From a bacterium (lineage in GTDB: Bacteria > UBA8248): 64,000 nucleotides of DNA. This document shows positions 39,049 through 61,698 of the stretch, in pieces. The translations under genes and the position numbers were made by a program. The notes under the pieces were generated by a model. The model was not told where the DNA came from and ran no database searches. It worked only from the letters and a program-made list of their open reading frames with translations. Numbering within the stretch: position 1 is the stretch's first letter; each line of letters opens with the position of its first letter. The stretch spans positions 640,001-704,000 of the forward strand of contig OY843592.1 in assembly GCA_963692865.2 (NCBI GenBank), written 5' to 3'.

Positions 39049-39600
39049 CTACATTTTATGATTCATCTCATGGACCAAGAGAGCCAACTTCAAAGATACG
39101 CTGCTTGCGAATCCACCGAGCTCGCCCGAGCCCGCGGTGACTCGATGTCATGGTATTATAAGCGGAACGGGATTTCTATGAAGCGCCTGGCCGACGGCGC
39201 GTGAAGCATTTGGGTTTCCAATCTGATTCGCCACCCAGCCGTAGGAGCGCGTCTCGCCATAAGGAATTTTTTCCGTCTCCTTGAGCACCTTGGTCATAAA
39301 TGGCGTGAGAGAGGAGATATCTGTCTTCAACTTGAAATTTTTTCGGGCGCCTTCAAGATATTCTTCTATCTCTTTTGAAGCTCGACGACTCAACGGTGTT
39401 GATTGCTCCTTTGCATGATTCGCCGCGAGAAGTTTTTCCACTCCATTCAACATTCTTATTTCTGCAATGCCCTTATCCGATACAAACACGGAGAATTCCG
39501 CACGCACTTTCTGAAGCCACTCGGCTACATGATTTTCCAGCGATTCTCCATCTTGCCGGAACAACTCACCCTGTTGCCATCCATCTACCCGGCGCGCCAT
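39049..39600 (-). CDS. ogt: Selenocysteine-containing methylated-DNA-protein-cysteine methyltransferase (Ogt/MGMT), Sec TGA at 39148-39150
   Basis: IPYGETRSY..RAVG..NPVPLIIP-TGA-HRV equals the PCHRV active site. Readthrough gives LGGFA..K.ALL.HE and a TAG stop at 39049-39051. Confidence 0.9.
39108..39144 (-). promoter_or_regulatory. Putative SECIS hairpin of ogt
   Basis: mRNA CGAGUC-ACCG-CGG-GCUC-GGGC-GAGC-U-CGGU-G-GAUUCG forms a long stem immediately 3' of the UGA, with a G-rich apical loop about 20 nt from it. Confidence 0.65.
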
Positions 39601-39623: not shown

Positions 39624-40820
39624 CTAAAACGCCGTGGCCACTCCTCTTACATAGGCCTGTCCCGTTCTTAAGCGCAAGATCTGATTCGTTCCATCCGAAT
39701 GCAAGAACGTGCTGGCATCACGAAGATATTTCTCCATGGGCGCATCGTGCATAATGCCTGCGCCACCGAATACCTCCATGCCCAGGCGCGCGCAATCAAA
39801 GGCGACCTCCGAAGCGAAAACTTTGCACTTCCATCCTTGCGTGAAATCATAGGGCTTTTGATGATCCACCGCCCAGGCGGTGCGCCAGATGTACGTGCGC
39901 GCAATGTCCAGATTCATCGCCATATCGGCGAGAATAGTTTCTATCGCCTGGTGTTGCCCGATGGGCTTGCCGCCCTGGACGCGTTCGCGGCTGTAGGCGA
40001 GCGCTTTCTCGAAAGCGGCGCGTCCGACACCCAAGGCCGTGGCGGCTGCTTCGGGTTTTCCCATCGCCAGCAGATTGCCTCTGATTTCGAACATATTCCC
40101 TTCGCCCAGGATAATGTGGTTCTCGGGGATCTCGACGTCTTCATAGAAAATTTCTGAATTCATCGAAAGTCGCTGGCCAATTTTTTCATGCACTTCGCCT
40201 ATCGATACGCCGGGTGTCTCTCTAGGCACCAGAAAGCCGGTCAAGCCTTCTCTCAAGCTTTTGCTGAGGTCGGTTCTCGCCGCCAAAACGTACAACGACG
40301 CGACAGGGCCATTGCTGACATAGCGCTTTTCCCCATTGATGATCCATTTGCCGCCCTCTTTCTCCGCGCGCGTATAAAGCGCAATGGAGGGATCGTCGTA
40401 ATATCCCTGATGGTCGGTTCCCGCTCCCTCTTCCGTCATGGAAATCGCAGCCAGGAATCTGGGGTCTTCACACAGGCGTTTTATCCAGGGATCTCTGACT
40501 TCAGGCTCTACCTTTTCGAATATATGGGACAGCTTCCATGTCTGATCCAGGTTCACCGCAAAACCCAGATCTCCCACGGCAAGCTCCTCCCCCGCCAGAC
40601 AACAAGAAAGCACGTCGGCATCCATTCCGCCATATTCTTTGGGATAGGGAAGCTGCCTTAAACCCAAAGCGCTTGCTTTTTCGGTCAAATCCCACGGCAT
40701 CCGCTCTTCCCAGTTCTGAATCCGGTCACGCTCGGGAGCCACCGGAGCCAGTTCTTCACCAGCAAATTTTCTGGCTATTGTCTGAATTTGTATTTGTTCT
40801 TCATTCAATGTGAATTCCAT
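39624..40820 (-). CDS. Acyl-CoA dehydrogenase family protein (atypical)
   Basis: MTEEGAGTD, NGEKRYVSN, KIGQR, RVQGGKPI, FGGAG..EKYLRDA. HSDGT replaces the usual YEGT. Confidence 0.92.
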   Translation of the reverse strand: MEFTLNEEQIQIQTIARKFAGEELAPVAPERDRIQNWEERMPWDLTEKASALGLRQLPYPKEYGGMDADVLSCCLAGEELAVGDLGFAVNLDQTWKLSHIFEKVEPEVRDPWIKRLCEDPRFLAAISMTEEGAGTDHQGYYDDPSIALYTRAEKEGGKWIINGEKRYVSNGPVASLYVLAARTDLSKSLREGLTGFLVPRETPGVSIGEVHEKIGQRLSMNSEIFYEDVEIPENHIILGEGNMFEIRGNLLAMGKPEAAATALGVGRAAFEKALAYSRERVQGGKPIGQHQAIETILADMAMNLDIARTYIWRTAWAVDHQKPYDFTQGWKCKVFASEVAFDCARLGMEVFGGAGIMHDAPMEKYLRDASTFLHSDGTNQILRLRTGQAYVRGVATAF

Positions 40821-40895
40821 GCACACTCCTCCCGTCAATCATCCCCTGAAAGCGAGGCAAATGATACGATTCTCTTTAAGGAAAACAAAAGCGCA

Positions 40896-41279
40896 TCATG
40901 AAGAACAAGACAATGCGCGATTGGCCGCAGCCATCTCCATGACGCCGGGCGGTCTGCCGACGCCTGCGACAAAAGCGGCATCCGCTCCCGCCATTTCTAG
41001 CTGAAGAACAGATTCGTTCAAATCTGCATTTGGTGATAGCGATATGCCTCGCCTCGAAGGCATGTCTGTTTTTGCGACCTCTCCCACCTTTTGAAAAACC
41101 TCGGGCACACGAAGAAACTCATCCAGGTCTTTTTTGCTTACAACGCCAACCAAGCGATTTTCATCAAAAACAGCCGCCCAAGGCGAGTTTATCCTGTTCA
41201 TGGCCGTCCAAGCTTCTCTGGCGTCCTCCTCCACCCCAACAATCGCTACCGCCTGCAAAAAACACTCCCGAACCTTCAT
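40896..41279 (-). CDS. CBS-domain protein
   Basis: MKVRE, A...M, VFDENRLVGVVSKKDL. Confidence 0.7.
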   Translation of the reverse strand: MKVRECFLQAVAIVGVEEDAREAWTAMNRINSPWAAVFDENRLVGVVSKKDLDEFLRVPEVFQKVGEVAKTDMPSRRGISLSPNADLNESVLQLEMAGADAAFVAGVGRPPGVMEMAAANRALSCSS

Positions 41280-41977
41280 CGAGCGATTTTCTCGGCCACC
41301 GACAGAAAACCAAAGCGCGGCATTGCTTCAATTTTCAAAAACGTTGATTTCATCGCTTTTAGTCTTTCCGGTGGATGTTGGGCGATTTCACTGGCCAGAT
41401 CACATGTTACCCTCATCAGGTCTATTTTCGATGTGAGGCGATTCACCAATCCTAAGCGATATCCCTCTCGCGCATCAAATCTTCTGCCGGTGAGCACCAA
41501 ATCCTTTGCTGATGGAATAAAAATCTGCCGCGTCAGACGAACGGTGGCGTCTCCTCCAGGAAATACGCCCATCGCAGTCTCCGGATATCCCAAAACGGCG
41601 CCCTCCACCGCAACACGAATATCGCATGAGAGCATCAACACCATCCCCCACCCGAAAGCGGGCCCGTTTACCGCTGCTATGGTCGGGATGGGCAGTTCAC
41701 GAAGGGCCGTACTCCACCTCTCGCCCAACATCATGAAGCGTTTCGCTTGTTCTTTCGTATGGGTAGCGCTTTCCTTAAGGTCGCGTCCTGAAGAAAAAGA
41801 CGTTCCTGAGCCGATTACAATAAGGACTTTAATATCTGGTGTCCTTTTAATTTCATCCATCTCCCTGCACATGGCTTCCATCAATGGCGTGTTGAATGCG
41901 TTTCGCGTTTCCGGACGATTCACGGTGATGATCGCAACATGGGATTCGATATGTGTGATGATCAGGCCTTTATCCAT
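41276..41977 (-). CDS. Enoyl-CoA hydratase/isomerase family protein
   Basis: NRPETRNA, FSSGRDLKE, PTIAAVNG, CDIR, PE...G.FPG. Confidence 0.9.
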   Translation of the reverse strand: MDKGLIITHIESHVAIITVNRPETRNAFNTPLMEAMCREMDEIKRTPDIKVLIVIGSGTSFSSGRDLKESATHTKEQAKRFMMLGERWSTALRELPIPTIAAVNGPAFGWGMVLMLSCDIRVAVEGAVLGYPETAMGVFPGGDATVRLTRQIFIPSAKDLVLTGRRFDAREGYRLGLVNRLTSKIDLMRVTCDLASEIAQHPPERLKAMKSTFLKIEAMPRFGFLSVAEKIAR

Positions 41978-41991
41978 GTTTCGCCACAATG

Positions 41992-42023
41992 AAAAAAAAA
42001 GCCCGTCCCCTGAGGGACAGGCT
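41992..42023 (-). terminator. Intrinsic terminator
   Basis: The minus strand reads AGCCTGTCCC-TCAG-GGGACGGGCT followed by a T run. Confidence 0.8.
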
Positions 42024-42050
42024 CGATGTATCATGGAAATTGGAAAGTCT

Positions 42051-42833
42051 TTATTCTCCGGTAAACACAGGTTTTCTCTTTTCTCTGAACGCCGCCAGCG
42101 CCTCGGCGAAATCCTTGGTGTGATTCAAAGGCAATCTGTGAGCGTTGGAAAACTCGACGGCCTGAGCGAGCGGCATATCGAGCGTTTGATCGATCACTTT
42201 TTTCGCGCTACGAACCCCCAAGGGGCCATTATCTCTTATCTTCTCCGCTATGGCGGTCGCTTCATCCATCAGCCTGTCCAGTGGATGCGCTTTGTTCACC
42301 AAACCAATACGCTCCGCTTCTTTTCCATCGATTCTCTTGCTCGTGTAAACCAATTCTTTCGCCTGTCCGGCCGGCATGATTCTTTGGAGCCAGACTACGC
42401 CACCTGCCCCGGGGAAGATTCCCAGGCTGCATTCCGGAAAACAAAGAGTAGCTTTTTCCGCGGCCAGTCTGATATCGCATACCAAGGTGATTTCCACGCC
42501 CCAGCCGAACGTATGACCGTTGATAGCGGCGATGGTGGGCATGGGCAAGCGTTCCCATAGCGACGTCGCCGTCATCACGTAGCGCTGGTATTGATCGGCC
42601 ATCTCCTTCGTATGCGTTGTGCTTTCTTTCAGGTCGCGGCCCGTGCTGAAACCACGTCCCTCGCCGGTGAGGATGACCACGCGCACGTTTTGTGCATCGG
42701 CCAAGGTTCGCGTCAATTCCACGAATTCTTCCGCCATCTTGAAGCTGATCGCGTTCAGGCTCTCCGGACGGTTGAACTTCACTACCGACAATCCATCTTC
42801 TTCCGTATAGGATAACGTTTCAAATTCGCGCAC
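42051..42833 (-). CDS. Enoyl-CoA hydratase/isomerase family protein
   Basis: NRPESLNA, FSTGRDLKE, GWGVE, PECSLGIFPG, AFREKRKPVFTG. Confidence 0.93.
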   Translation of the reverse strand: MREFETLSYTEEDGLSVVKFNRPESLNAISFKMAEEFVELTRTLADAQNVRVVILTGEGRGFSTGRDLKESTTHTKEMADQYQRYVMTATSLWERLPMPTIAAINGHTFGWGVEITLVCDIRLAAEKATLCFPECSLGIFPGAGGVVWLQRIMPAGQAKELVYTSKRIDGKEAERIGLVNKAHPLDRLMDEATAIAEKIRDNGPLGVRSAKKVIDQTLDMPLAQAVEFSNAHRLPLNHTKDFAEALAAFREKRKPVFTGE

Positions 42834-42873: not shown

Positions 42874-43404
42874 TCAGCTTTTCAGATGGCTGGCCACTTC
42901 TTCGACAAACTTGAGTGTCGTGTCTCTCATTTCATCAGGCTGTAAATTGCTGACCGGGTGAGGCAACTGAATATAGGGATGGCCTTCCATACCCTTTCCG
43001 CGGAACTGAAAGTCCGCCGCATTCTTGAACGCCTCGGTGATAATGGTCGTCGAAGGAACGCCCCGTTTTTCAAATTCAACCGTGTCGTGCACACTGCACA
43101 ACGTGCAGGAGCCTCAGCCCCCCAATGCGGCTATCGCCACATCCACCTCCTGGGCCATTTCTTCAATCATTTCATCAGTGGCAGGCTTCGAGTAATGCTC
43201 TTTGCGCCGCGAGATGACTCTGGCCACGTCGAACTGCTCACGCAGGGCATTACCAAGAGTTTCCAAAATGATATCCGCTTGTTCTTTCGTGTTATCGAGG
43301 AGCCCCACCACCTTTCCCGAAAGATCGCCGGGCCGTTGCGCAAGCTCGATTCGCGCGGCCGATCCTCCCGCCGTCGGATCAATGAATCCCATTCCGTTCG
43401 CCAT
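42874..43404 (-). CDS. UGSC-family selenoprotein, Sec TGA at 43114-43116
   Basis: ORFs 43114-43416 and 42874-43101 are in the same frame. Readthrough gives AALGG-U-GSCTLCSVHD..EKRGVP. RBS GGAG precedes ATG 43404. Confidence 0.92.
43084..43102 (-). promoter_or_regulatory. Putative SECIS hairpin of the UGSC gene
   Basis: GUUGUGCA-GUG-UGCACGAC stem-loop begins 11 nt after the UGA, with a G in the loop. Confidence 0.65.
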
Positions 43405-43599
43405 GGTTTTCTCCATATGATATGTGAATTCAACCGAGGCTAAATCATATCCCGCAATTCATTCCTTGTCTACGATATCAGCCTTTTCGTTCTTTTCATG
43501 AAAATGCGAATGATGTTTTTTCCGCTTCTCAGTTTCGCGGATTTTTGGCAAAATCAAGTCTAATTTACAGCAATCCTCTTAACCTTAAGGAGCAGACAA

Positions 43600-45861
43600 A
43601 TGGCCGATTACGATATCATCGGCAAGTCGAATGTTCGATACGACGCTATTCCGAAAGCGGATGGCTCCATGCCCTATGGAGAGGACGCGATACCCGCAGG
43701 CGCCTTACAGTGCGGCGTACTGTTTACGCCCATCCCCGTAGGCCGCCTGAAAAAACTCGACACTTCTAAAGCCGAAAAAATCCCGGGCGTAGCCGCCATT
43801 CTAACTGCAAAAGATATTCCGGGCACAAACGCGCGATTCGGCTCCGGAACACCGGGCCTGCCCCATCAACCGGTTCTGGTGGAAGATAAAATCGAATTTA
43901 CGGGAGACGCTCTCGCCATCGTAGGCGCCGAAAACAGAGAAGCGCTTGACGCCGCCATCGCGGCCATCGAGGTGGAAATCGAGGCGGAAGAAGGCGTGTG
44001 GACAACGCGTCACGATGAAACGAGCGCCGAGAAACGCCAGGCGTGTGATTTCGAGGCCACCCGCGGTGACATCAAAACCGCGTTCGATGAAGCCGACGTG
44101 GTGGTTGAGAAAACATACACCACGCAACTTGCCGAGCACGCCTTTCTGGAACCCGCTTCCGGTACCTCCTGGATGGAGGAAGACGGCGTTATCACAATCC
44201 GCGTCGGCACACAGCTTATTGAATACTATCGAGCCATTGCGGCGATTTTGGGAATCTCGCATAGCCGCGTCCGCCACCTCGGCACTTACGTCGGCGGCGG
44301 ATTCGGCGCCAAGGGTATGTTGACCGTAGAGCCTTACCTGGCGCTGCTTACATGGCATACACAAAGGCCAGCGGTAATGGTACTGGGTCGCGAGCACGGC
44401 ATCAGAAATACCTCGAAAAAACATCCTTTCTATATGAAATACAAAACAGGAGCGACCAAGGACGGGAAAATCCTTGCCGTAGAAGCGGATATCGTGGGCG
44501 ATGCAGGCGCCTATCCGTATAAGTCCAATCTATTCCTCCTGGGCGCGATGTGCATCGCCGCGGGTCCTTACGATGTCCCCAACGTAAAAATACGCGCGCA
44601 CGGCTATCTCACCAACAATCCCATCACCAACGCGATGCGCGGTGTCGGATCAAATCAAGTCTGCTTCGCATATGAGACCCAAATGAATCTGGTTGCAGAC
44701 GCCATCGGGATAGATAAATACGAATTCAGGCGCAAGAATTTCATCCAGAAAGGCCAGGAACTGCCGACCGGGCAGGTAATTCCTTACGAACCGAACCTGG
44801 AAGGATGCCTCGACGGCGCGCTTCAGGCATTGGGCGAACCTACAGAACCAGGGCCGGGCAAACGCATTGGCAGGGCGGCGGCGGCGAACATCACCGGCTA
44901 CGGAAGGCCGAATGACGACGCGAATGCGGCGGTTCACCTTGAGCCGGATGGCAGCGCCGTTGTCCGCGTAAGCGCGCCGGACATAGGCGCCGGCCAGGGC
45001 GCTACTCTCCAAAGCATCACGGCGGAAACCCTCGGACTCAGGCTAGATCAGGTTTCAACCCGTCTGTCCGATTCTGCTACTACGCCGCTCTCGGGCATCA
45101 CTGCAGGTTCTCGCCAAACACTCATGGCTGGGCACGCCGTTCAACTTGCCGCAGACGAAGTTCGAAAAGCCGTTACCAAAGGCGCCGCTTCGTTGCTCGA
45201 GGCTGCAGAAGAGGACATTCGCCTTGGAGGCGGCGAGGCATGGGTGGCCTCCGCTCCCGAGAGAATAGTTGGCATCGGTGCTGCGGCTGGCGAAGCCAAA
45301 AAAATGGGTGAATCGCTACATTGCACTCATGGCTACAACATGCCGGGACATGATTATGAGAATCCGGAGCGATACATGAACGGTATGGGCGGATGGTCGG
45401 ACTACACTTTTGGCGTTCATGCAAGTGAAGTGGAAGTCGACATCGAAACCGGCGAAGTGAATCTCTTGAAGCACATCGCTTCCCACGATGTCGGACGAGC
45501 GCTGAATCCTCAAAGCGTGGAGGGGCAATTCGAAGGCGGTGCGGTAATGGGAATTGGCTATGCGCTGCACGAGGAAATCACCATGGTGGAAGGAGACTGC
45601 CGATCACAAAGCTTTCACGAATACCTGATTCCCACCTCATCGGATATAGGCGAATTTGAGTCCGTCGTCCTCGAATGCGGGGAAGGGGCAGGCCCATATG
45701 GCGCACGCGGCGTCGGAGAACCTCCGTGCAATAACGCACCGGCCGCCGTCGCCCTCGCCATCAACGATGCGATAGGCACAGAAGTCTACGACCTCCCCAT
45801 CACGCCCGAGCGAGTCTGCTGGGCGGTAACAAAGAAAAACGGTAAAAGCAACGGTCATTAA
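43600..45861 (+). CDS. Xanthine-dehydrogenase-family molybdopterin-binding subunit
   Basis: HAFLEP, GGGFGAK, AMRGVG, DIGAG, AGSRQT, HDVGRALNP..VEGQ, GVGEP. Confidence 0.94.
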   Translation: MADYDIIGKSNVRYDAIPKADGSMPYGEDAIPAGALQCGVLFTPIPVGRLKKLDTSKAEKIPGVAAILTAKDIPGTNARFGSGTPGLPHQPVLVEDKIEFTGDALAIVGAENREALDAAIAAIEVEIEAEEGVWTTRHDETSAEKRQACDFEATRGDIKTAFDEADVVVEKTYTTQLAEHAFLEPASGTSWMEEDGVITIRVGTQLIEYYRAIAAILGISHSRVRHLGTYVGGGFGAKGMLTVEPYLALLTWHTQRPAVMVLGREHGIRNTSKKHPFYMKYKTGATKDGKILAVEADIVGDAGAYPYKSNLFLLGAMCIAAGPYDVPNVKIRAHGYLTNNPITNAMRGVGSNQVCFAYETQMNLVADAIGIDKYEFRRKNFIQKGQELPTGQVIPYEPNLEGCLDGALQALGEPTEPGPGKRIGRAAAANITGYGRPNDDANAAVHLEPDGSAVVRVSAPDIGAGQGATLQSITAETLGLRLDQVSTRLSDSATTPLSGITAGSRQTLMAGHAVQLAADEVRKAVTKGAASLLEAAEEDIRLGGGEAWVASAPERIVGIGAAAGEAKKMGESLHCTHGYNMPGHDYENPERYMNGMGGWSDYTFGVHASEVEVDIETGEVNLLKHIASHDVGRALNPQSVEGQFEGGAVMGIGYALHEEITMVEGDCRSQSFHEYLIPTSSDIGEFESVVLECGEGAGPYGARGVGEPPCNNAPAAVALAINDAIGTEVYDLPITPERVCWAVTKKNGKSNGH

Positions 45862-45875
45862 CAGGCTTCGATCAC

Positions 45876-45909
45876 AAAAGAGCCCCGGCAATTTTGTCGG
45901 GGCTCTTTT
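45876..45909. terminator. Bidirectional intrinsic terminator
   Basis: AAAAGAGCCCCGGCA-ATTT-TGTCGGGGCTCTTTT lies between convergent genes. Confidence 0.85.
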
Positions 45910-46035
45910 CTAAAGAAATGCACAAAACATTGCTGTTAACTCAAAGAGTAGACCGAAAAGAGTCCTTTTCGAGATTTTGAGATGTGTTGCTGAAAATCCG
46001 GTCTTCTGATCATCATTTCTTGGAAAGAAAACTTA

Positions 46036-47055
46036 TCATAAGTCAAAATTTTTTGTCACCGCCCGACACGCCACCGTAATTCCGTGCATGACCATGCTGG
46101 AAGGCGAACCCCTGCTTCCTGCGACGATTAAATGAAGATCTTCGGGATCGCCAACCGCAGGCACAAAAAAATCATCATCTTTCACATCCACGGGAAACGG
46201 CCAACGATCCGCGCCTTTCTCGCCCCGCCAGATACCGCCGCGCTTGATATCCCCTATAGTGCGCCCACCCATTTCCAGTAATTTTTGATGGACATCACTA
46301 CGAGTCATTCCGGCGTCAGCGCAAAGATGCGCATGTTGCGCACCCAGGACAACCGCCATATCCGCTTGCCGATACATATTGGGTCCGCCCAGTGCGGACA
46401 TCATATCGGCAACCGTCGCAAGAAGCCGGTCGGGAGTCAGGCTCGCATCGTCCCACACCTGCACTGGCCCTTCGAGAGGAATCATGGTCACCACATTATC
46501 GCTCTTCGAAAACCCTTTCGATTCCGCATACGACTCCCAGGGCGATTCCTCCTCGTTCTCCCGGATGCAAAAGGTGTTTCGCCAGGGGCCGCCAAAACCG
46601 CCGAGACAGGTGATTCCGGGGATGCCTCCACCCACATTCATCATGATGAGCCGCACGGCGCGGCCGATGGTCAGATTCGCCCGAAAGCCGGGTCCCATGC
46701 AGCCCACGCCGCCGTGCAGACCGATCTCCCTGGCGTAGGGGCCATTCACCAACAGAAAAGGCGCGCCCGCACTCGTCGTGGCCTGAATCAGATTTACGTT
46801 GAAACGCTCATCAAGAAGCGCTTCCAGTCCAGCTATCAGCACAGGTATGTACTCGGGCCTACAACCCGCCATCACGGCATGGGCCGCCAGACTCTGGATG
46901 CTGAGTTCTCCCCCAGCCGGAGCTACTTGGCCAAGTACTTCACCCGGCTCCCTTTTGGTTCCCGAGAGCATCAAAGCGATTCTCTCTTCCGTCGGAGTCA
47001 CGACAGGCAGGCCGTCCGACCATTCTTTGTCAAAGAAAAACTCAAACTCATCCAT
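46036..47055 (-). CDS. Uncharacterised 'DGLP..PT' family protein, paralogue 4 of 4
   Basis: WSDGLPVVTPTEER, HAVMAGC, VNGPY, GCMGPGFRAN.TIGRA, C..EN, LIVAG. Confidence 0.9.
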   Translation of the reverse strand: MDEFEFFFDKEWSDGLPVVTPTEERIALMLSGTKREPGEVLGQVAPAGGELSIQSLAAHAVMAGCRPEYIPVLIAGLEALLDERFNVNLIQATTSAGAPFLLVNGPYAREIGLHGGVGCMGPGFRANLTIGRAVRLIMMNVGGGIPGITCLGGFGGPWRNTFCIRENEEESPWESYAESKGFSKSDNVVTMIPLEGPVQVWDDASLTPDRLLATVADMMSALGGPNMYRQADMAVVLGAQHAHLCADAGMTRSDVHQKLLEMGGRTIGDIKRGGIWRGEKGADRWPFPVDVKDDDFFVPAVGDPEDLHLIVAGSRGSPSSMVMHGITVACRAVTKNFDL

Positions 47056-47090
47056 GTGCTCATCCTCAAAAGCAAGGCTGGCGGAAAGGC

Positions 47091-48107
47091 TTATGGTTGG
47101 TAGTCAGTCGAGACCGCTTCGCTGCCATCCACCCAGCCGGGCATGACGGCCGTCACCGGCCCGGGCGTACCGCCTGCGACGAGAAGTACCAGGTTATCTT
47201 CATCTTTAATCGCCGGCACCAGAAACGAATCATCCTGCAGGTTCACATCAAATGGCCACTTGGCTGCCATCTCATCACGCCAATAGCCCGATCTTTTCAA
47301 CTCGCCAAGGGGTCTGCGCGCAAGGCCCATAATTCTGTGATGAACATCTTTTTTGCTCAAACCAGCCTCCGCGCACATCCGCGCGTGGTCCGGCCCCAGG
47401 GCAACGACAATTTGGGTCTTCAGCCAGATGTTCAGCGAACCCAATGTGGATATTTTATCTGCTAATCCTACGAAAAAAGATTCCGGCTCCTTGGAATAAT
47501 CATCGATATATCCTTGGGGCGCTTCGGTCATCACGGCGGTTACAACATCGTCATCCAGATGAAATCCTCTCGTGACGGACAACGACTCCCATGGACTTTC
47601 CTCTTCGTTCTCGGCAATACAGAATGTATATCTGGCGGGAGAGCCGAAGGTGCTCATCGAGGCGAAAACCGGAACACCCCCACCCAGGTTCATGAGAATG
47701 AGCCGGATGGCGCGGCCAATCGTCGCATTCGCCCGAAAACCCGGCCCAAAGCACCCCGTGCCGCCGTGCAGACCGATTTTTTTCGCGTAAGGCCCATTCA
47801 CGATCATTAGAGGGGCCGCGCTGTGCATGGTTCCCTGAACGCCGTTCAAGTTGAGTTTCGGCGTGAGTAGCGCTCCAAGTCCTGCAATGACGACGGGCAA
47901 GTACGAAGGCTCGCACCCCGCCATCACGGCGTGAGCGGCAATCGCTTCAACTTTTGCTTCCCCCATGAGGGGCGGCACCAAACCGATGACTTCTGAAGCC
48001 CCAAGTCTTGTGCCTGAGAGCATGGAGGCCATTCGTTCTTGGGTTGGGGGAATAATCGGCAGGCCGTCCGACCAGGATTTTTGAAAGAAAAATTCGAATT
48101 CATCCAT
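47091..48107 (-). CDS. Uncharacterised 'DGLP..PT' family protein, paralogue 3 of 4
   Basis: Same motifs: WSDGLPIIPPT, HAVMAGC, GCFGPGFRAN. Confidence 0.9.
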   Translation of the reverse strand: MDEFEFFFQKSWSDGLPIIPPTQERMASMLSGTRLGASEVIGLVPPLMGEAKVEAIAAHAVMAGCEPSYLPVVIAGLGALLTPKLNLNGVQGTMHSAAPLMIVNGPYAKKIGLHGGTGCFGPGFRANATIGRAIRLILMNLGGGVPVFASMSTFGSPARYTFCIAENEEESPWESLSVTRGFHLDDDVVTAVMTEAPQGYIDDYSKEPESFFVGLADKISTLGSLNIWLKTQIVVALGPDHARMCAEAGLSKKDVHHRIMGLARRPLGELKRSGYWRDEMAAKWPFDVNLQDDSFLVPAIKDEDNLVLLVAGGTPGPVTAVMPGWVDGSEAVSTDYQP

Positions 48108-48148
48108 GGAAATATGACACCACTTTATCCATCGGGGCGACTCCGGCG

Positions 48149-49177
48149 CTACGCCTCATAGACCCCATGAACGGCGCGGCTGCCGCCGCTCCAGCCATGG
48201 CATACCGCGCTGCCCGATCCCCAGCCGCCCGCGACGATCAAGTGCAGGTCACGGGGGTCCTTGATGACGGGAACGAAAAACTCATCATCATCGGGGTCCA
48301 CGTGAATAAACATATCCAGCGCGCGTTCGCGCCGCCAGTTGCCGCCTCGTTTCAACTCCTTCACTTTGTGGCCTGCCAGCTCACAAAGCCGCCGATGCAC
48401 ATCCGCGCGCGCAAGACCGCCCTCGGAACAAATTTTCGCATGCTGGGGATTCATCGCGACGAGCATATCGGTTCTTGGCGCGTGCATGTTCCAGGAGCCC
48501 AAGCCCGTCATCGCATCGGCGATTCCCCGGAGCAGCCTCTCGGGCTCCTCGCTGACGTCATCGAAGGTCAGTCGCGGGCTTTCCACCATGGCCATGGTGA
48601 TAACGTTTTCATCCGCCCCGTATCCCCTGGATTCAGCGAGCGTCTCCCAGGGGTGAAACTGAAGGTTCTCCGTGACGCACGCGGTATAGCGCAGCGGCGT
48701 GCCGAAAATCGTCATGGAAGAAACGCCCGGGATGCCCCCGCCCAGGTTCATCAAAATCAGGCGAATGGCGCGGCCGATGGAAGCGTTGGCCCTGAACCCC
48801 GGGCCGAAACAGCCGTTGCCCCCGTGAATGCCGATTTTCTCGGAATACGGGCCGTTTACAATCATCAGGGGCGCTACGCCGTGCATCGTGCCCTGTACGC
48901 CGTTCATGTTGAACTCATCGCGAAGCATAAGCGTGGTGGCGCCGAGTACGACCGGCAGGTACTCGGGTTTGCAGCCCGCCATTACCGCATGAACCGCCAC
49001 GCTATGGACCGTGGCCTCGCCCATGGCGGGAGGAACCTGACCTATGAATTCGGCAGGATTTCTCTTCGTGCCCGAGAGCATGCGCTCGATGCGCTCTTCC
49101 GTCGGGGTGACGACGGGAAGGCCGTCCGACCAGGGTTTTTCCAGGAAAAACTCGAATTCATCTTGAGGAGCGTTCAA
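48149..49177 (-). CDS. Uncharacterised 'DGLP..PT' family protein, paralogue 2 of 4
   Basis: Same motifs: WSDGLPVVTPT, HAVMAGC, GCFGPGFRAN. Confidence 0.9.
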   Translation of the reverse strand: MNAPQDEFEFFLEKPWSDGLPVVTPTEERIERMLSGTKRNPAEFIGQVPPAMGEATVHSVAVHAVMAGCKPEYLPVVLGATTLMLRDEFNMNGVQGTMHGVAPLMIVNGPYSEKIGIHGGNGCFGPGFRANASIGRAIRLILMNLGGGIPGVSSMTIFGTPLRYTACVTENLQFHPWETLAESRGYGADENVITMAMVESPRLTFDDVSEEPERLLRGIADAMTGLGSWNMHAPRTDMLVAMNPQHAKICSEGGLARADVHRRLCELAGHKVKELKRGGNWRRERALDMFIHVDPDDDEFFVPVIKDPRDLHLIVAGGWGSGSAVCHGWSGGSRAVHGVYEA

Positions 49178-49206
49178 GCCCTTTCACCTTTTGAAGTATA
49201 TGGACA

Positions 49207-50241
49207 TCATGACGACGCAAATGCGCGGGAGACGGAACGGCTGCTCCCGTTCCAGCCGTGCATCACGGCCGTAATCGGGCCCGGAATCCCGCCCGCCACG
49301 ATCAAGATCAGCCTCCCGGCCTCTTTTATCGTCGGAACGAACGCGCCGTCATCGTCCAGATCGACGGGGAACGGAAAATCCCTGATGCGATTTTCCCTGA
49401 AATGCCCTCCCGTTTTGAGTTCGCCCACCGTGCGGCCCGCGATTTCGCAAAGGCGCCCGTGGACATCCGCCTTTGAATACCCCCTCTTTGCGCATATCGC
49501 GGCCTGCTGCGGGCTCATCGCCACCACCAGATCCGTGTTGGCCCAACAGTTCCACGAACCCAAATGCGACATGGTGTCCGCGATGGAGGGGAGCATGCGC
49601 TCGGGGTCGTCGCTCACGTCATCCCAGGACATGACGGGGCCTTCCACGTGCACGGCGGTGACGACGTTCTCCTCAACTTCAAAACCATGCGTCTGAGCGA
49701 GAGACTCCCAGGGGCTTTCCGCTTCATTCTCGGCGATGCAGTACGTGAACCTCCCCGGTTGGGAGAACGTGCTCATCGAGGTGATGCCCGGAATTCCGCC
49801 GCCAATGTTGAGCAGCAGAAGCCTGATGGCGCGGCCGATCGTCGCGTTGGCGCGATTCCCGGGGCCGAAACAGCCGAGCCCCCCATGCAGGCCGATTTCC
49901 CTGGCGTAGGGGCCGTTCACGATCAAAAGGGGGGCCGCGCAGGAGAGCGTCGCCTGAACGCCGCCCACGTTGAATTTTTCCTCCAGAATCGCCTCCACGG
50001 CCCCGACGAGAACCGGCATATACGCCGGCTTGCATCCGGCCATGACGGCGTGAACGGCGATGGTCCGAACGTCCGCTTGCGCCAGAAGCGGGGGCACGTC
50101 TCCGAGGACTTCATCCGGATCGCGGCTCGTTCCCGCCAGCATGAGTCCCAGGCGCTCTTCCGTCGGAGGGATGACAGGCAGGCCGTCGGACCAGGCTTGT
50201 TCAAAGAAATACTCGTACTCATCCACGGGAGGGGCGCTCAC
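49207..50241 (-). CDS. Uncharacterised 'DGLP..PT' family protein, paralogue 1 of 4
   Basis: Same motifs: WSDGLPVIPPT, HAVMAGC, GCFGPGNRAN. Confidence 0.9.
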   Translation of the reverse strand: MSAPPVDEYEYFFEQAWSDGLPVIPPTEERLGLMLAGTSRDPDEVLGDVPPLLAQADVRTIAVHAVMAGCKPAYMPVLVGAVEAILEEKFNVGGVQATLSCAAPLLIVNGPYAREIGLHGGLGCFGPGNRANATIGRAIRLLLLNIGGGIPGITSMSTFSQPGRFTYCIAENEAESPWESLAQTHGFEVEENVVTAVHVEGPVMSWDDVSDDPERMLPSIADTMSHLGSWNCWANTDLVVAMSPQQAAICAKRGYSKADVHGRLCEIAGRTVGELKTGGHFRENRIRDFPFPVDLDDDGAFVPTIKEAGRLILIVAGGIPGPITAVMHGWNGSSRSVSRAFASS

Positions 50242-59161: not shown

Positions 59162-60088
59162 CTAACTAAGCCGCTGGAGCAATCCCTCGAGCGTCTCCCT
59201 CGTATAATACTCTATTTCTATCTTTCCGCTCTCCCCGTCTCCTGAAATTGCGACTTTCGTACCCAGCGCGCTTCGGAGCCGCCCGGCCGCCTCGCGCAGA
59301 TAAATCGCCTGCGGCCCCGTCGGCCCGTTCGGGGGAGCGGACCGCGGGGAGGCTTCCCTCTTCCCGCTTCCGCCTTCGAGCGCGCGCCTCACGCGCGCTT
59401 CGAGCCCGCGCACGGAGAGCCTCTTCTGGGTGGCGGCCTCGGCGTGGCTCGCCATCTCCTCTTCCGTGCGCAGGGACAGGAGCGCCCTGGCGTGCCCCAT
59501 GGAGAGAAGGCCGGCGGCCACGCTCTCCTGAACCGAGGCGGGCAGATTGAGGAGGCGGACGTAGTTCGCGACCGTGGAGCGATCCTTCCCCACGCGCGCG
59601 GCGACTTCTTCCTGCGTGAGACCCAGGCGCTCCATCATGCCCGCGTATGCGGCCGCCTCCTCCATGGGGTTCAGGTCCGCGCGCTGCACGTTCTCGACGA
59701 TGGCGAGCTCCAAGGCCTCGTCTCCGCCCGCGTCGAGCAGGACGGCGGGAACCTCATCGACTTCCGCCAGCCGGGCGGCGCGCCATCGCCGCTCCCCGGC
59801 CACGATCTCATACCCCCCGCCCGCGGCGCGGCGCACCAGAAGGGGCTGGATCACCCCGTGGCGCCGAACGGATTCGGCGAGCTCGGCCAGGTCCTCCTCG
59901 TCGAAATCGACGCGCGGCTGGTGAACGCCCGGTGCGAGGCGGTCGGGAGAAAGCCGCAGCAGAATTCCCGCATCCTCGGCGGCGCCTCCAGGAGTATCCA
60001 GTACCGCTGGTGTGGGTTCTTGCGTTTCCTGGGAGGCCAGGAGCGCGTCCAGGCCGCGTCCGAGCACTTTTTTCCTCATGGTCGTCAT
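59162..60088 (-). CDS. parB: Chromosome partitioning protein ParB/Spo0J
   Basis: LGRGLDAL, QPR, IVAGERRWRA, ENVQRADLNP.EEA, HTH GKDRSTVAN. Confidence 0.97.
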   Translation of the reverse strand: MTTMRKKVLGRGLDALLASQETQEPTPAVLDTPGGAAEDAGILLRLSPDRLAPGVHQPRVDFDEEDLAELAESVRRHGVIQPLLVRRAAGGGYEIVAGERRWRAARLAEVDEVPAVLLDAGGDEALELAIVENVQRADLNPMEEAAAYAGMMERLGLTQEEVAARVGKDRSTVANYVRLLNLPASVQESVAAGLLSMGHARALLSLRTEEEMASHAEAATQKRLSVRGLEARVRRALEGGSGKREASPRSAPPNGPTGPQAIYLREAAGRLRSALGTKVAISGDGESGKIEIEYYTRETLEGLLQRLS

Positions 60089-60930
60089 GTCCGGTTTTTC
60101 ATCCTTTCCTTCGAGCGCACGATGAACTCGCCCGCCAGCGCGAGATACGCCTGCGCGCCCGGCGAGGAGATGTCGTACGTGATCACCGGCTTCCCGTGGC
60201 TGGGCGCCTCGGCGAGGCGCACGTTCCTGGGAATCACGGCCCGGTAGGTCAACTCCGGCAGGTGGGAGCGCAAATCCTCGTTCACCTGACGCGAAAGGTT
60301 CGTCCTCGAATCATACATCGTCAGCAGGATCCCGCCTATCCTCAAGCCCGGATGAACGCTCCCGCGTATCCGCTCCACCGTCTTCATCAGCCGCGCCAGA
60401 CCCTCGAGCGCGAAATACTCCGCCTGGATGGGGATGAGCACCTCGTCCGCCGCCCGCAGGCCGTTCAGCGTCAGAAAACCCAGTGAGGGCGGGCAGTCGA
60501 TGAGGATACAGCGGTACCGGCTTCTGAGCGGCTCTATGACGCCCAGCAAGCGGCTCTCCCTTTGCGGCAAATCGGCAATCTCCACCTCCGCGCCCGCCAG
60601 GTCGATGGAGGAGGGAAGGATGTCAAGCCCTTTAATATCAGTAGCATGCAATGATTCATCGCCTATCGGCTCGCCAAGCACGAGCGCCCGGTAGAGCGAA
60701 GAAGATGGCGAAAACAAACCGAAATTGCTCGTCGCGTTCGATTGCGGGTCCATGTCGACCAGCAGCGTCGGCTGGTCCGCCACCGCGAGGCAGGCCGCGA
60801 GGTTGACGGCCGTCGTCGTCTTGCCGACGCCGCCTTTCTGGTTCACGACGGCCACGACCGTGCAGGGGGCCTCGTTTGCTTCGGCCTCGGGAGCGCTCGG
60901 GTGGATCGTCGCTCCGGGTGTGGTTTCCAT
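60085..60930 (-). CDS. parA: Chromosome partitioning ATPase ParA/Soj
   Basis: NQKGGVGKTTT, DPQSNAT, DCPPSLG, QAEYFALEG, EAPSHG. Confidence 0.97.
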   Translation of the reverse strand: METTPGATIHPSAPEAEANEAPCTVVAVVNQKGGVGKTTTAVNLAACLAVADQPTLLVDMDPQSNATSNFGLFSPSSSLYRALVLGEPIGDESLHATDIKGLDILPSSIDLAGAEVEIADLPQRESRLLGVIEPLRSRYRCILIDCPPSLGFLTLNGLRAADEVLIPIQAEYFALEGLARLMKTVERIRGSVHPGLRIGGILLTMYDSRTNLSRQVNEDLRSHLPELTYRAVIPRNVRLAEAPSHGKPVITYDISSPGAQAYLALAGEFIVRSKERMKNRT

Positions 60931-61005
60931 ATTCTTGCTTCAAGGCGGATGAAAACGGGTGCGATGATCAAAGGTTCTCACACCGCCCCCGAAAATTCAA
61001 CCGGA

Positions 61006-61021
61006 TGTTTCACGTGGAACA
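61006..61021. promoter_or_regulatory. parS site 1
   Basis: TGTTTCACGTGGAACA matches the consensus TGTTNCACGTGAAACA palindrome and lies upstream of parA. Confidence 0.92.
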
Positions 61022-61049
61022 AAATTTCTCGATAATTCGGCTAGGGATA

Positions 61050-61065
61050 TGTTCCACGTGGAACG
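61050..61065. promoter_or_regulatory. parS site 2
   Basis: TGTTCCACGTGGAACG. Confidence 0.9.
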
Positions 61066-61098
61066 GTGGGGATTTTGACGATGAGACGGGTGTTATTT

Positions 61099-61657
61099 GG
61101 TAGGGACAGGTCGTGGCCTGTCCCTGCAGGCTTGTTTGGAAATACGCCAGATTGTAGGGGTTGCCGAAAAAGCCGACCCTGGGATCGAGCACGTATGATG
61201 CTCGTCTTGTATGGCCGCTGTATCAACCTCATCCTGAGTAGGCGCGCAAGCGCCGTATCGAAGGATGGGAGGCGCAAACGCTCATTCATCAATCACGTTT
61301 GACCCCGCAGGAGCGAACTTCGCCCTTCGATACGCCGCCTTCGGCGGCTACTCAGGGTGAAGCAGAGCGGTGCGTTGCTCAGGAGAAAGTAGGGGCGGTT
61401 CGCGAACCGCCCCTACGGGATTCCGCAACCCTTCTTTGAGCAGGCTCCGTAGGGACAGGCCCCCGTGCCTGTCCGAAGCTCTTGAAAAAGGACAACCACG
61501 GAGGGCAGGACAACCCAAAAGGGTTGTCCCTACAAACCCTGGCGGGAGGCGGCAGGGGCGGACCTGTGTGTCCGCCCGCTTTTCTTATTCACCCGTCCCA
61601 CAATCTGCAGATACGTTCCTCAAACAAACAGGGCGGACACACAGGTCCGCCCCTACG
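61099..61657. repeat. Composite REP cluster between mnmG and parS
   Basis: GTAGGGACAGG..CCTGTCCC, GTAGGGGCGGTTCGCGAACCGCCCCTAC, GGGCGGACACACAGGTCCGCCCCTAC and a CTCATCCTGAG doublet. Confidence 0.9.
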
Positions 61658-61698
61658 GGTAAAATATGGTTTTCGGAAGAAAACTCCCAAGGGTGGCA

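Follow-up and report, generated by a model that had tools for sequence, protein, structure and literature searches.

The window analysed here, a 64,000-nt stretch of contig OY843592.1 of a bacterial genome (lineage UBA8248), encodes a selenoprotein of the UGSC family and four tandem paralogues of a second family, referred to below as the partner, or 'DGLP', family. Comparative sequence analysis indicates that the pairing of the two families is real, and suggests that UGSC and the 'DGLP' protein form an undescribed two-part redox enzyme. The association, which an initial annotation had put forward, is borne out by gene adjacency, natural fusions and phyletic co-occurrence, to which a predicted interface can be added.

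The UGSC selenoprotein and its decoding signals

The UGSC gene occupies positions 42874..43416 of the minus strand and ends with a TGA stop codon (42874-42876). Its product comprises 180 aa when counted from the first ATG. The likely start, however, is the ATG at 43404, which is preceded by a GGAG and gives 176 aa. The sole in-frame TGA of the gene (43114..43116, minus strand) provides the U of the UGSC motif, located within GG-U-GSCTLC (GG-U-GSC at codon 101 of the read-through translation). The read-through product exceeds both curated family cut-offs (Pfam PF24696, 173.1 bits against 25; NCBIfam NF041046, 149.8 bits against 125) and, with selenocysteine (Sec) in the motif and a SECIS-like hairpin behind it, is a full member of the UGSC family. 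This hairpin (43084..43102, minus strand; 8-bp stem, GUG loop) begins 11 nt 3' of the UGA, while the 76-nt fold, taken whole, is not unusual (z -0.39). A stem is present at the matching place in all eight UGSC genes of the genome (6-9 bp, starting 10-13 nt past the UGA; six of the stems have 8 bp), the copies differing by compensatory changes, and a single TGA marks the Sec position in each of these copies as well as in 63 of 63 UGSC matches in related loci. The reading of this gene as a UGSC selenoprotein with an in-frame TGA and a SECIS-like element, originally made from its letters only, was thus upheld, and the Sec machinery that it presupposes is encoded in the genome (selA, selB, selD and tRNA-Sec).

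One of the genomic UGSC copies reads UGSS, and the U-x-x-C redox pair is therefore not universal; in one fused homologue the Sec position is occupied by Ser. Upstream of the UGSC gene, in the 183-nt spacer between it and its divergent neighbour (see below), there is a sigma-70-like promoter match (43444..43472, minus strand; 10/12 consensus positions), which is a consensus match only, the count of such matches in the region not being above that in shuffled sequences.

In the AF2 model of UGSC (pLDDT 94.4) strands and helices alternate to form an a/b/a sandwich of flavodoxin-like type. Its Foldseek matches are flavodoxin-like proteins (TM 0.4-0.5), and thioredoxin is absent among the matches listed to rank 50, an absence that is in itself no proof. 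The modelled fold differs from that termed 'likely Trx-like' in the report of the family by Zhang and Gladyshev 2008 (PMC2398784). No function is given for UGSC in the portions consulted of PMC2398784, PMC13188914, PMC9312934 and PMC1976440. Figure S1A of the 2008 report includes a conserved domain, 'Unknown_1', fused to UGSC; as an uncharacterised conserved domain attached to UGSC it resembles the partner of the fusions found in this study, and is a candidate for the same family.

The likeness of the Sec region to the glycine and proline reductase subunits GrdB/PrdB, which the initial annotation had also proposed, proved to be weak. UGSC scores 18 bits (E 1.1e-3) against the NCBIfam GrdB model TIGR01917, whose cut-off is 602.2 bits, and the hhalign comparison with GrdB/PrdB is a weak match that places Sec on Sec (P 7e-4, probability 27%, 47 columns). 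The two groups share Sec in a U-x-x-C-type motif at a helix start, with an E-x-x-G-[IV]-P-[ST] strand behind it. On the other hand, a search of the genome with PF07355 (GrdB/PrdB) matched four other genes and no UGSC gene, and the UGSC HMM matches none of these four GRDB-family (GrdB/PrdB-like) proteins at E up to 10. By analogy, the proposed pairing of a Sec subunit with a larger, substrate-binding subunit would recall protein B of the reductases (GrdB/GrdE and PrdB/PrdA), and one fusion (see below) suggests a thioredoxin-type electron supply as in those enzymes. The partner itself shows no sequence relationship with GrdE/PrdA, which are pyruvoyl proproteins: hhalign gives its profile a probability of 0.25% against the GrdE-like protein of the genome (PF09338) and of 1% against the N-terminal part of GrdB. 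A separate GrdE and GrdB-like pair is encoded in the same genome.

The partner family and its linkage to UGSC

The four partner genes lie in tandem on the minus strand, separated by gaps of 29-41 nt: paralogue A (46036..47055; 339 aa, loop QATTSA), B (47091..48107; 338 aa, QGTMHS), C (48149..49177; 342 aa, QGTMHG) and D (49207..50241; 344 aa, QATLSC), the last being the copy modelled. The other three are 51-53% identical to the first. In agreement with the initial description, all four have a length of about 340 aa, share the motifs WSDGLP..PT, HAVMAGC, GCxGPGxRAN and CxxEN with their invariant Cys residues, and vary in the residues after Q-x-T (TSA, MHS, MHG and LSC). Profile searches of Pfam and NCBIfam gave no match for any of them. 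The family is very large: over 7500 homologues of paralogue D were retrieved, and with an E limit of 1e-3 the family comprises 5007 clusters. Its features (about 340 aa; near-invariant D-G-L-P, P-T, A-G-C, R-A-N, G-R and C-x-x-E) are present in all four proteins. Over 56 diverse members two Cys are near-invariant, namely C70 (55/56) and C168 (53/56). The AF2 model of paralogue D (pLDDT 95.7, pTM 0.93) has no clear solved fold relative by Foldseek or by Z-scored structure comparison, the weak echoes being of class I fumarate hydratase and the PrpD family (Foldseek E at least 8e-4, Z 3.5-4.1).

The four paralogues are old copies. All 17 close relatives retain their order, and distant relatives do so in part. 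The orthologous group of paralogue A (9 rows, from Nitrospinota, Tectomicrobia and Betaproteobacteria) has QATTS throughout (9/9). The group of paralogue C (61 rows, 53 of them with QGTMHGV) includes nearly every UGSC-adjacent copy of Chloroflexota and Betaproteobacteria; paralogue B groups only with the orthologue of the one close relative kept in the tree, and a further orthologous group carries QGSMNSS in 5/5 rows. This loop (Q-x-T and the following residues) is thus conserved within orthologous groups across phyla and different between groups, and the variability noted earlier proves to be group-specific and, in the model described below, to lie against the Sec loop. Betaproteobacteria possess two tandem partner copies that are conserved as a pair and have an identical loop, for which a heteromer or redundancy fits better than different substrates.

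The genome contains eight UGSC genes and 15 partner genes. Seven of the eight UGSC genes immediately adjoin a partner gene, one of these seven being fused to it in frame, and the seven partner copies located away from any UGSC gene fall into a single clade. Of 51 genomes of the phylum, 43 contain both families, and the remaining eight (93-100% complete) contain neither. Moreover, five of ten long partner-family members (sampled among 150 listed) carry UGSC, in both domain orders, and one of the ten carries a thioredoxin-reductase-like Pyr_redox_2 domain; tandem double-domain partner fusions also exist (e.g. P0129, 717 aa). The neighbourhood and fusion survey therefore bore out the expected co-occurrence of the two families.

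Among 74 related loci, UGSC lies less than 400 nt from a partner gene in 32, beyond the gene of a xanthine dehydrogenase (XDH)-family protein, as in the window, in 22, and 3.5 kb from a partner gene in one; in three the XDH gene is present and UGSC was not found in the locus. Eleven loci are truncated at the edge of a contig. Five of the 63 uncut ones, including the paralogue A group of Betaproteobacteria, have no UGSC near the partner gene, although the flanks of these five extend for at least 1.5 kb. Some partner members may therefore act on their own or with a UGSC from another locus. In the above 22 loci the order of partner array, XDH, UGSC and the enoyl-CoA hydratase/isomerase gene ECH1 is conserved, and five of these loci are distant (Nitrospinota, Tectomicrobia; partner 51-56% identical).

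The UGSC of the window is 64-81% identical to UGSCs of Chloroflexota, Betaproteobacteria and the distant Nitrospinota/Tectomicrobia loci, compared with 28-41% for its seven siblings in the genome, and in Chloroflexota and Betaproteobacteria such UGSCs stand directly beside partners of the same clade. These relationships identify it as the cognate subunit of the four paralogues, despite the XDH gene between them. Three further partner copies of this clade stand alone elsewhere in the genome.

The predicted complex and a possible mechanism

Complex prediction made use of P0151, a natural Cys-form fusion, which was split into its two domains and served as a 39%-identical stand-in for the window proteins. 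The split domains are predicted to dock (ipSAE 0.72, compared with 0.01 for the best of three controls), with at least 90% contact agreement between runs and a partner pLDDT of at least 91; 58 of 80 solved complexes attain that mark, as do 2 of 110 mismatched pairs, figures that are approximate, the alignment being custom-made. Sequence searches gave no solved relative, and this result is therefore unlikely to stem from memorised structures. In the P0151 model the interface comprises, on the UGSC side, the Sec-equivalent Cys91 with its neighbours and, on the partner side, the counterparts of paralogue D residues M67 and A97-T98-L99-S100, so that the Sec position faces the very loop in which the four paralogues are unlike one another. 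All partner copies retain the DGLP..PPT motif, the putative docking site. The initial annotation had proposed modelling UGSC with each paralogue, to see whether Sec meets a conserved Cys pocket; what stands of this, within the scope of the split fusion, is a predicted meeting of the Sec position with the partner loop near a conserved Cys.

Taking these data together, we favour, with a confidence slightly above even, a two-subunit thiol/selenol enzyme in which one UGSC would be used by several large subunits for reductive chemistry. UGSC would be the small, flavodoxin-like subunit, with selenocysteine at a helix start, and its N-terminal tail would dock onto DGLP..PPT in the large one, setting the selenol against the loop made up of Q-x-T and three further residues, beside the near-invariant cysteine of AVMAGC. 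One UGSC gene may serve the four tandem paralogues and probably also the three solitary copies of the same clade. Each large subunit has its own conserved version of the loop and therefore probably its own substrate. Most likely, small organic acids would be reduced or reductively cleaved, with Sec acting as the nucleophile, a cysteine resolving the intermediate and a flavoprotein of the thioredoxin-reductase type as the electron source; the resulting compounds might then be handed on to CoA-transferases, acyl-CoA dehydrogenases and enoyl-CoA hydratases encoded by neighbouring genes.

Neighbouring genes and alternative explanations

The gene between UGSC and the partner array (43600..45861, plus strand) encodes an XDH-family molybdopterin-binding large subunit, in which the hammerhead domain and both MoCo-binding domains score above their cut-offs (Ald_Xan_dh_C, PF01315; MoCoBD_1, PF02738; MoCoBD_2, PF20256). 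It is divergent from UGSC, with a shared spacer of 183 nt, and convergent with the array. Its best NCBIfam models are PucD (412 bits) and 4-hydroxybenzoyl-CoA reductase alpha (385 bits), proteins with which it shares all three Pfam domains; both scores are far below the respective cut-offs, and it reaches no NCBIfam equivalog cut-off. Unlike known members of the XDH/aldehyde oxidase family, it has no adjacent [2Fe-2S] or FAD subunit. The window contains no Fer2_2 or FAD_binding_5 gene (all four matches of each in the genome lie elsewhere), tblastn of the window with the FeS/FAD subunits of the genome found nothing, and such subunits are absent from the covered stretch of all 22 loci of the same layout. 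The initial view of this subunit as an orphan is thus correct. Six other XDH large-subunit genes of the genome likewise have no partner-subunit gene next to them. The genome also has a pair of FeS and FAD genes that stands apart from any large subunit, and the missing subunits could be supplied in trans.

ECH1 (42051..42833, minus strand; Pfam ECH_1, 202.5 bits) begins 40 nt downstream of UGSC and is probably co-transcribed with it. A homologue lies 3' of UGSC in 22 of 22 related loci with the window layout, and a terminator-like hairpin just after ECH1 (41999..42024, minus strand; 11 pairs, then a T run) suggests a two-gene unit. Since the longest ORF of the following gene overlaps this hairpin, the real start of that gene is probably further downstream. 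The context also includes a second enoyl-CoA hydratase/isomerase (41276..42034, minus strand; ECH_1, 144.9 bits) and an acyl-CoA dehydrogenase (39624..40838, minus strand; Pfam Acyl-CoA_dh N, M and C), both seen in close relatives only.

Several other explanations have to be weighed. The four paralogues might be subunits of one UGSC-binding hetero-oligomer with just one substrate, as their close, co-directional spacing, their age and conserved order, the betaproteobacterial pair with its common loop and the double-domain fusions would allow; we nevertheless consider this unlikely, because one to four partner copies per locus accompany the same UGSC type, in many loci only one partner gene stands beside UGSC, three copies of the clade are solitary, and the contact loop is group-specific and different between the paralogues. 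Our doubts are a little stronger in the case of a redox-neutral isomerase, racemase, lyase or transferase, with the roles of nucleophile and acid/base falling to Sec and the two near-invariant Cys. These residues do suit a two-base mechanism, the fold echoes are of non-redox enzymes, and the window has neither a thioredoxin reductase gene nor any other reductase gene. However, Sec occurs mostly in redox enzymes, one partner is fused to a thioredoxin-reductase-like flavoprotein, and a gene for an FAD-dependent oxidoreductase follows one UGSC module of the genome.

It is improbable that the paralogues act without a selenoprotein, the UGSC of the window serving instead the co-transcribed enoyl-CoA hydratase or the Mo-hydroxylase. 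UGSC does belong to another transcription unit than the array, with a gene of the opposite strand between them; its pairing with ECH1 is constant and closed by the terminator-like site, and both the single clade of partner copies away from UGSC and the five uncut loci devoid of it would agree with such independence. Against this, the same UGSC subtype stands directly beside partners of the same clade in 32 loci of other phyla, and the putative docking motif is kept in all partner copies. An equally small chance attaches to UGSC and its partners being an electron-transfer or maturation module of the Mo-hydroxylase that replaces its small and medium subunits: the layout conserved even in distant loci, always devoid of FeS/FAD subunits, and the divergent spacer common to UGSC and XDH could be explained in this way, but the XDH gene is absent from most other UGSC-partner loci and from the other seven UGSC loci of the genome, the further orphan large subunits and the lone FeS and FAD pair are open to the explanation in trans, and we know of no Mo-hydroxylase that receives electrons via a selenol.

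The favoured two-subunit enzyme has a recurrent acyl-CoA setting in this lineage. An enoyl-CoA hydratase, acyl-CoA dehydrogenase or family III CoA-transferase gene directly flanks four of the eight genomic UGSC modules (rough binomial P ~1e-4, given 70 such genes in the genome). This context is limited to the lineage of the window, the betaproteobacterial loci having TctC, LysR and other neighbours instead.

Decoding of the UGSC gene and the selenoproteins of the genome

The UGSC gene (42874-43416, minus strand) encodes a single protein if its in-frame TGA (43114-43116, minus strand) is decoded and read as the U of GG-U-GSCTLC. The read-through product, proposed in the initial annotation as a 176-aa selenoprotein with a SECIS-like hairpin, is recognized by both models of the family, i.e. 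Pfam PF24696 (173.1 bits; cut-off 25) and NCBIfam NF041046 (149.8 bits; cut-off 125). The hairpin, with an 8-bp stem and a GUG loop (43084-43102, minus strand), starts 11 nt past the UGA. Because the fold of the whole 76-nt SECIS region was no better than that of shuffled sequences (z -0.39), the hairpins of the eight UGSC genes of this genome were compared: all eight occupy the same site, and paired changes between the copies preserve the stem. Each of these genes contains a single TGA, as does every one of the 63 UGSC matches in 74 related loci, where this in-frame codon falls in the *GSC motif. The selABCD genes, suggested as a check, are represented in the genome by selA, selB, selD (itself with an in-frame TGA) and tRNA-Sec. 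Since the UGSC gene, the hairpin, the Sec machinery, the four paralogues and the lone xanthine-dehydrogenase-family (XDH) large subunit were all seen, the observation made from the sequence is confirmed in every part.

According to the consulted part of PMC2398784, UGSC is among the most abundant selenoprotein families of the GOS ocean and freshwater survey (255 Sec sequences), and the consulted part of a 2026 review (PMC13188914) places it among selenoproteins with largely uncharacterised functions. No function is given for UGSC in the consulted parts of the selenoproteome surveys and reviews that treat it, these two included. A cultured bacterium that carries UGSC, Hyphomonas neptunium, is named in PMC1976440.

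The genome (4.15 Mb in 8 contigs, the window being G000:C1:640001-704000 on contig C1) has as its nearest public relatives MAGs labelled Nitrospinota or "bacterium". It is selenoprotein-rich, as judged from its eight UGSC genes, a GrdB-like protein, three PrdB-like proteins, a methyltransferase and selD. The methyltransferase gene, O6-methylguanine-DNA methyltransferase-like (39049-39600, minus strand), has a TGA (39148-39150) at the active-site position, in the motif P-U-H-R-V; a homologue from one related locus is recognized by Pfam PF01035, and the consulted part of PMC13188914 counts the family among the known selenoprotein families. The GrdB-like selenoprotein gene adjoins a GrdE-type gene (C1:3118230-3119264 and 3121299-3122453), and the three short PrdB-like selenoproteins (C1:555258, 1076452 and 846354) have the in-frame TGA in U-x-x-C motifs. 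A second tRNA-Sec is located on contig C4. The small contigs C4, C5 and C8 duplicate genes of C1, with XDH, enoyl-CoA hydratase (ECH) and acyl-CoA dehydrogenase (ACAD) scores almost equal to those of the C1 copies. As genome contamination is estimated at 6.7%, the assembly may contain redundant or foreign pieces.

UGSC and its partner family

The unnamed "DGLP" proteins, referred to here as the partner family, accompany UGSC at several levels. Seven of the eight UGSC genes of the genome, the only ones found when all its six-frame ORFs were searched with the UGSC HMM, adjoin a partner gene, and one of the seven forms an in-frame UGSC-partner fusion (C1:327659-329248). Among 51 genomes of the phylum, 43 contain UGSC and the same 43 contain the partner, and the remaining eight (completeness 93-100%) lack both families; as related genomes are not independent, this co-occurrence represents only a few evolutionary events. 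Fusions were sampled among ten unusually long partner members out of 150 listed. Five contain a UGSC domain (three N-terminal, two C-terminal), and in three of these five the gene calls begin or end at the Sec codon. The other long members have a thioredoxin-reductase-like Pyr_redox_2 domain (one), a double partner domain (one) or no extra Pfam match (three). The fusion P0142 carries Ser at the Sec position with no Cys near, and is thus a rare member without a redox-active residue there. The consulted part of the study of Zhang and Gladyshev (PMC2398784) describes UGSC fused to a conserved "Unknown_1" domain. With adjacency, fusions in both orders and co-occurrence all found, the association of UGSC with "DGLP" proteins, mentioned in the initial annotation, is substantiated, and the pairing of the two families is well supported.

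The partner genes of the window form a tandem array on the minus strand: paralogue A (46036-47055; 339 aa), B (47091-48107; 338 aa), C (48149-49177; 342 aa) and D (49207-50241; 344 aa). Paralogues B-D are 51-53% identical to A, and all four bear the motifs named in the initial annotation, including the variable triplet after Q-x-T. None of the four had a match in the Pfam and NCBIfam scan, and the ESM Atlas, queried with a 71%-identical homologue, returned only unnamed clusters of the same family. The family is very large: in one search, 7527 of 8000 scored candidates had E <=1e-3, and its 50%-identity representatives comprise 5007 clusters at E <=1e-3 and 1191 clusters at E <=1e-30. This family, with its thousands of clusters and the 15 members encoded by the genome, has neither a database model nor a clear solved fold relative.

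The proposed invariance of several cysteines holds family-wide for C70 (conserved in 55 of the 56 members compared) and C168 (in 53), together with the near-invariant N132, R137 and E171, but not for C124, present in only 20 of 56. A three-Cys Fe-S cluster, as in the Fe-S hydro-lyases, was therefore dropped as a candidate, since this third cysteine is found in so few members.

In a tree of the genome's own partner copies, the four of the window's array and three that stand alone elsewhere make up one clade (SH-aLRT 100), apart from the eight UGSC-adjacent copies. This topology could be taken to mean that the seven-copy clade is a UGSC-independent branch, a view argued against by a wider comparison, in which the four paralogues were used as queries against contigs from one genome per species. 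In 32 of the 74 loci obtained, UGSC lies <400 nt from the partner gene(s), and a further 22 show the layout of the window, i.e. a partner array, a convergent XDH large subunit gene, then UGSC and an enoyl-CoA hydratase. UGSC is 3.5 kb off in one locus; three loci have the XDH gene and no UGSC in the stretch covered (one of them cut by a contig end), and in 11 the contig ends <1.5 kb from the partner gene. Only five loci lack UGSC despite flanks of >=1.5 kb. Moreover, the window UGSC shares 64-81% identity with UGSCs of Chloroflexota, Betaproteobacteria, and distant Nitrospinota and Tectomicrobia, compared with only 28-41% with its seven siblings in the genome. A tree was also built from 106 partner proteins, with 16 of 17 near-identical close relatives excluded; in it, paralogue C falls into a 61-row group with nearly all UGSC-adjacent copies of Chloroflexota and Betaproteobacteria. 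Orthologues of paralogue A occur in Tectomicrobia and Betaproteobacteria and those of paralogue D in Nitrospinota, and paralogue B pairs solely with its orthologue from the single close relative retained. Taken together, the locus survey, the UGSC identities and the partner tree show that the four paralogues are old, distinct lineages, and that this UGSC subtype goes together with this partner clade. In this lineage, the XDH gene has come to sit between UGSC and the partner array. The layout of a single cognate UGSC set against several old paralogues of the partner is new here.

Predicted folds, a predicted UGSC-partner complex and likeness to Grd and Prd enzymes

A PDB sequence search gave no significant match for UGSC or the partner family. 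Paralogue D was modelled with high confidence (pLDDT 95.7, pTM 0.93). Its best Foldseek match is class I fumarate hydratase (E 8e-4, TM 0.27-0.35, rmsd 10-17 A), and its best VIA match has Z 5.4 over 93 residues, fumarate hydratase and serine dehydratase entries reaching Z 3.5-4.1. These matches are too weak for either enzyme to be accepted as a fold relative. The predicted partner fold appears to be without a clear relative, although weak matches are no proof of a new fold. UGSC was modelled (pLDDT 94.4) as a sandwich of alternating strands and helices, with Sec at the start of the helix after strand 82-88, and its Foldseek matches are flavodoxin-like proteins (TM 0.4-0.5). Thioredoxins are missing from the matches listed, which sits poorly with, but does not disprove, the "likely Trx-like fold" ascribed to UGSC in the consulted part of PMC2398784.

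The complex was modelled with a natural Cys-form UGSC-partner fusion, P0151, split into its two domains, using our own alignment of search-returned proteins; P0151, with an identity of only 39% to paralogue D, stands in for the window's own UGSC and paralogue. The split pair scored 0.72 and the best control 0.01. Among benchmark pairs, 58 of the 80 solved complexes attained that mark, as did 2 of the 110 mismatched pairs; these benchmark counts are only rough, because our own alignment was used. Between runs at least 90% of contacts agree, with a partner pLDDT of at least 91. The model supports, but does not prove, binding of UGSC to the partner, with the caveat that domains of one fused protein are expected to dock. 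In this model the N-terminal tail of UGSC rests on the P-P-T stretch directly past the D-G-L-P motif, and the Sec-equivalent Cys91, together with G92, A93, S95, S96, W97 and H100, contacts the equivalents of A97-T98-L99-S100 and M67 of paralogue D, i.e. the Q-x-T loop and the AVMAGC motif. Within an orthologous group the contact loop is conserved from phylum to phylum, and it changes from one group to another (QATTS in 9/9 rows, QGTMHGV in 53/61, QGSMNSS in 5/5 and QATMHAV in 4/4). Such a pattern is expected of specificity-setting residues beside a catalytic selenol, with the reservation that the two tandem partner copies of Betaproteobacteria have an identical loop.

The initial annotation had likened the Sec region to that of GrdB and PrdB, subunits of glycine and D-proline reductase. 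This resemblance is weak: a UGSC profile of 69 sequences aligned with the GrdB/PrdB-like proteins of the genome over 47 columns (P 7e-4, probability only 27%), pairing Sec with Sec and keeping the E-x-x-G-I-P-T strand in register, but the UGSC HMM found none of these proteins at E up to 10. The NCBIfam GrdB model matched UGSC residues 80-173 at 18 bits (E 1.1e-3; cut-off 602 bits). Using hhalign, the partner profile showed no relation to the GrdB-like N-terminal part (probability 1%), to the GrdE-like protein (0.25%) and to the UGSC profile. Given the low GrdB score, the 27% probability, and the null HMM and partner comparisons, the Grd and Prd enzymes may serve as the nearest working analogy for the UGSC-partner pair, not as members of the same family.

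Gene context and possible function

The XDH large subunit gene (43600-45861, plus strand), located between the array and UGSC, encodes all three family domains and scores under every NCBIfam equivalog cut-off. Its description as an orphan proved correct: no [2Fe-2S] or FAD subunit gene was found in the 64-kb window, and the large subunit is similarly alone in all 22 loci with the window layout. Set against the roughly ten XDH-family large-subunit genes of contig C1 are just four Fer2_2 and four FAD_binding_5 genes. No adjacent subunit accompanies seven of the large subunits, i.e. that of the window and six others in the genome, and an FeS and FAD gene pair (C1:2430823 and 2431726) lacks a large subunit alongside. 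In view of the six other lone large subunits and this lone pair, it is plausible that the missing subunits are supplied in trans.

An enoyl-CoA hydratase gene, ECH1 (42051-42833, minus strand), begins 40 nt after UGSC and is followed by a strong terminator-like hairpin (41999-42024, minus strand). Its homologue follows UGSC in 22 of 22 loci with the window layout; a second hydratase and an acyl-CoA dehydrogenase are shared by close relatives only. The longest ORF of the second hydratase (41276-42034, minus strand) begins upstream of the hairpin, and its true start is probably an internal Met about 19 codons downstream. The conserved linkage to ECH and an FeS-less Mo-hydroxylase is new here, as is the acyl-CoA context.

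Elsewhere in the genome, UGSC modules have the gene orders DctM, CoA-transferase III, ECH, UGSC, partner; partner, UGSC, CoA-transferase III; ACAD, ACAD, UGSC, partner, with RidA about 1.4 kb on; UGSC, partner, amidase, class V aminotransferase; and UGSC-partner fusion, partner, FAD-dependent oxidoreductase. An ECH, ACAD or CoA-transferase III gene directly flanks four of the eight modules, which, with 70 such genes in the genome, has a chance probability of about 1e-4 by a rough binomial estimate. Clustering of neighbour genes over the 74 loci, noisy because of antisense ORFs, indicated no clear substrate. The recurrent neighbours in Betaproteobacteria differ from those in this genome, and only genes for TctC solute receptors (20 loci, 41 copies), LysR, ABC-F, SDR and a ketopantoate-reductase-like protein recur there. 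The neighbours of the three stand-alone partner copies (chromate transporter, TatD-like amidohydrolase, S15 peptidase, GH113 and M24 peptidase) have no common theme.

From these data we infer the chemistry of the UGSC-partner pair. It is conceivable, if rather unlikely, that the pair constitutes a modular selenoenzyme, in which one small Sec "cassette" subunit would be common to as many as seven catalytic subunits, each specific for its substrate and all sharing a fold without a solved relative. Each of these subunits would reductively strip a functional group off a different organic acid, the products passing to CoA-dependent, beta-oxidation-type genes, and in this lineage the system would also be tied to the FeS/FAD-less Mo hydroxylase. 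The function of UGSC becomes a testable question through the combination of a defined, near-obligate partner, a predicted interface between Sec and a loop specific to each group, and a genome that sets a single UGSC against several old paralogues.

The G+C content of the window is 0.49-0.56 over roughly 8-48 kb and 0.61-0.65 on either side, the lower-GC part containing the UGSC, ECH, ACAD and XDH genes and the higher-GC part paralogues C and D. At the end of the window (59162-63618, minus strand) are ORFs judged from their translations to be parB-, parA- and mnmG/gidA-like, and the locus therefore probably lies at a distance of some 10-20 kb from the region of the chromosomal origin.
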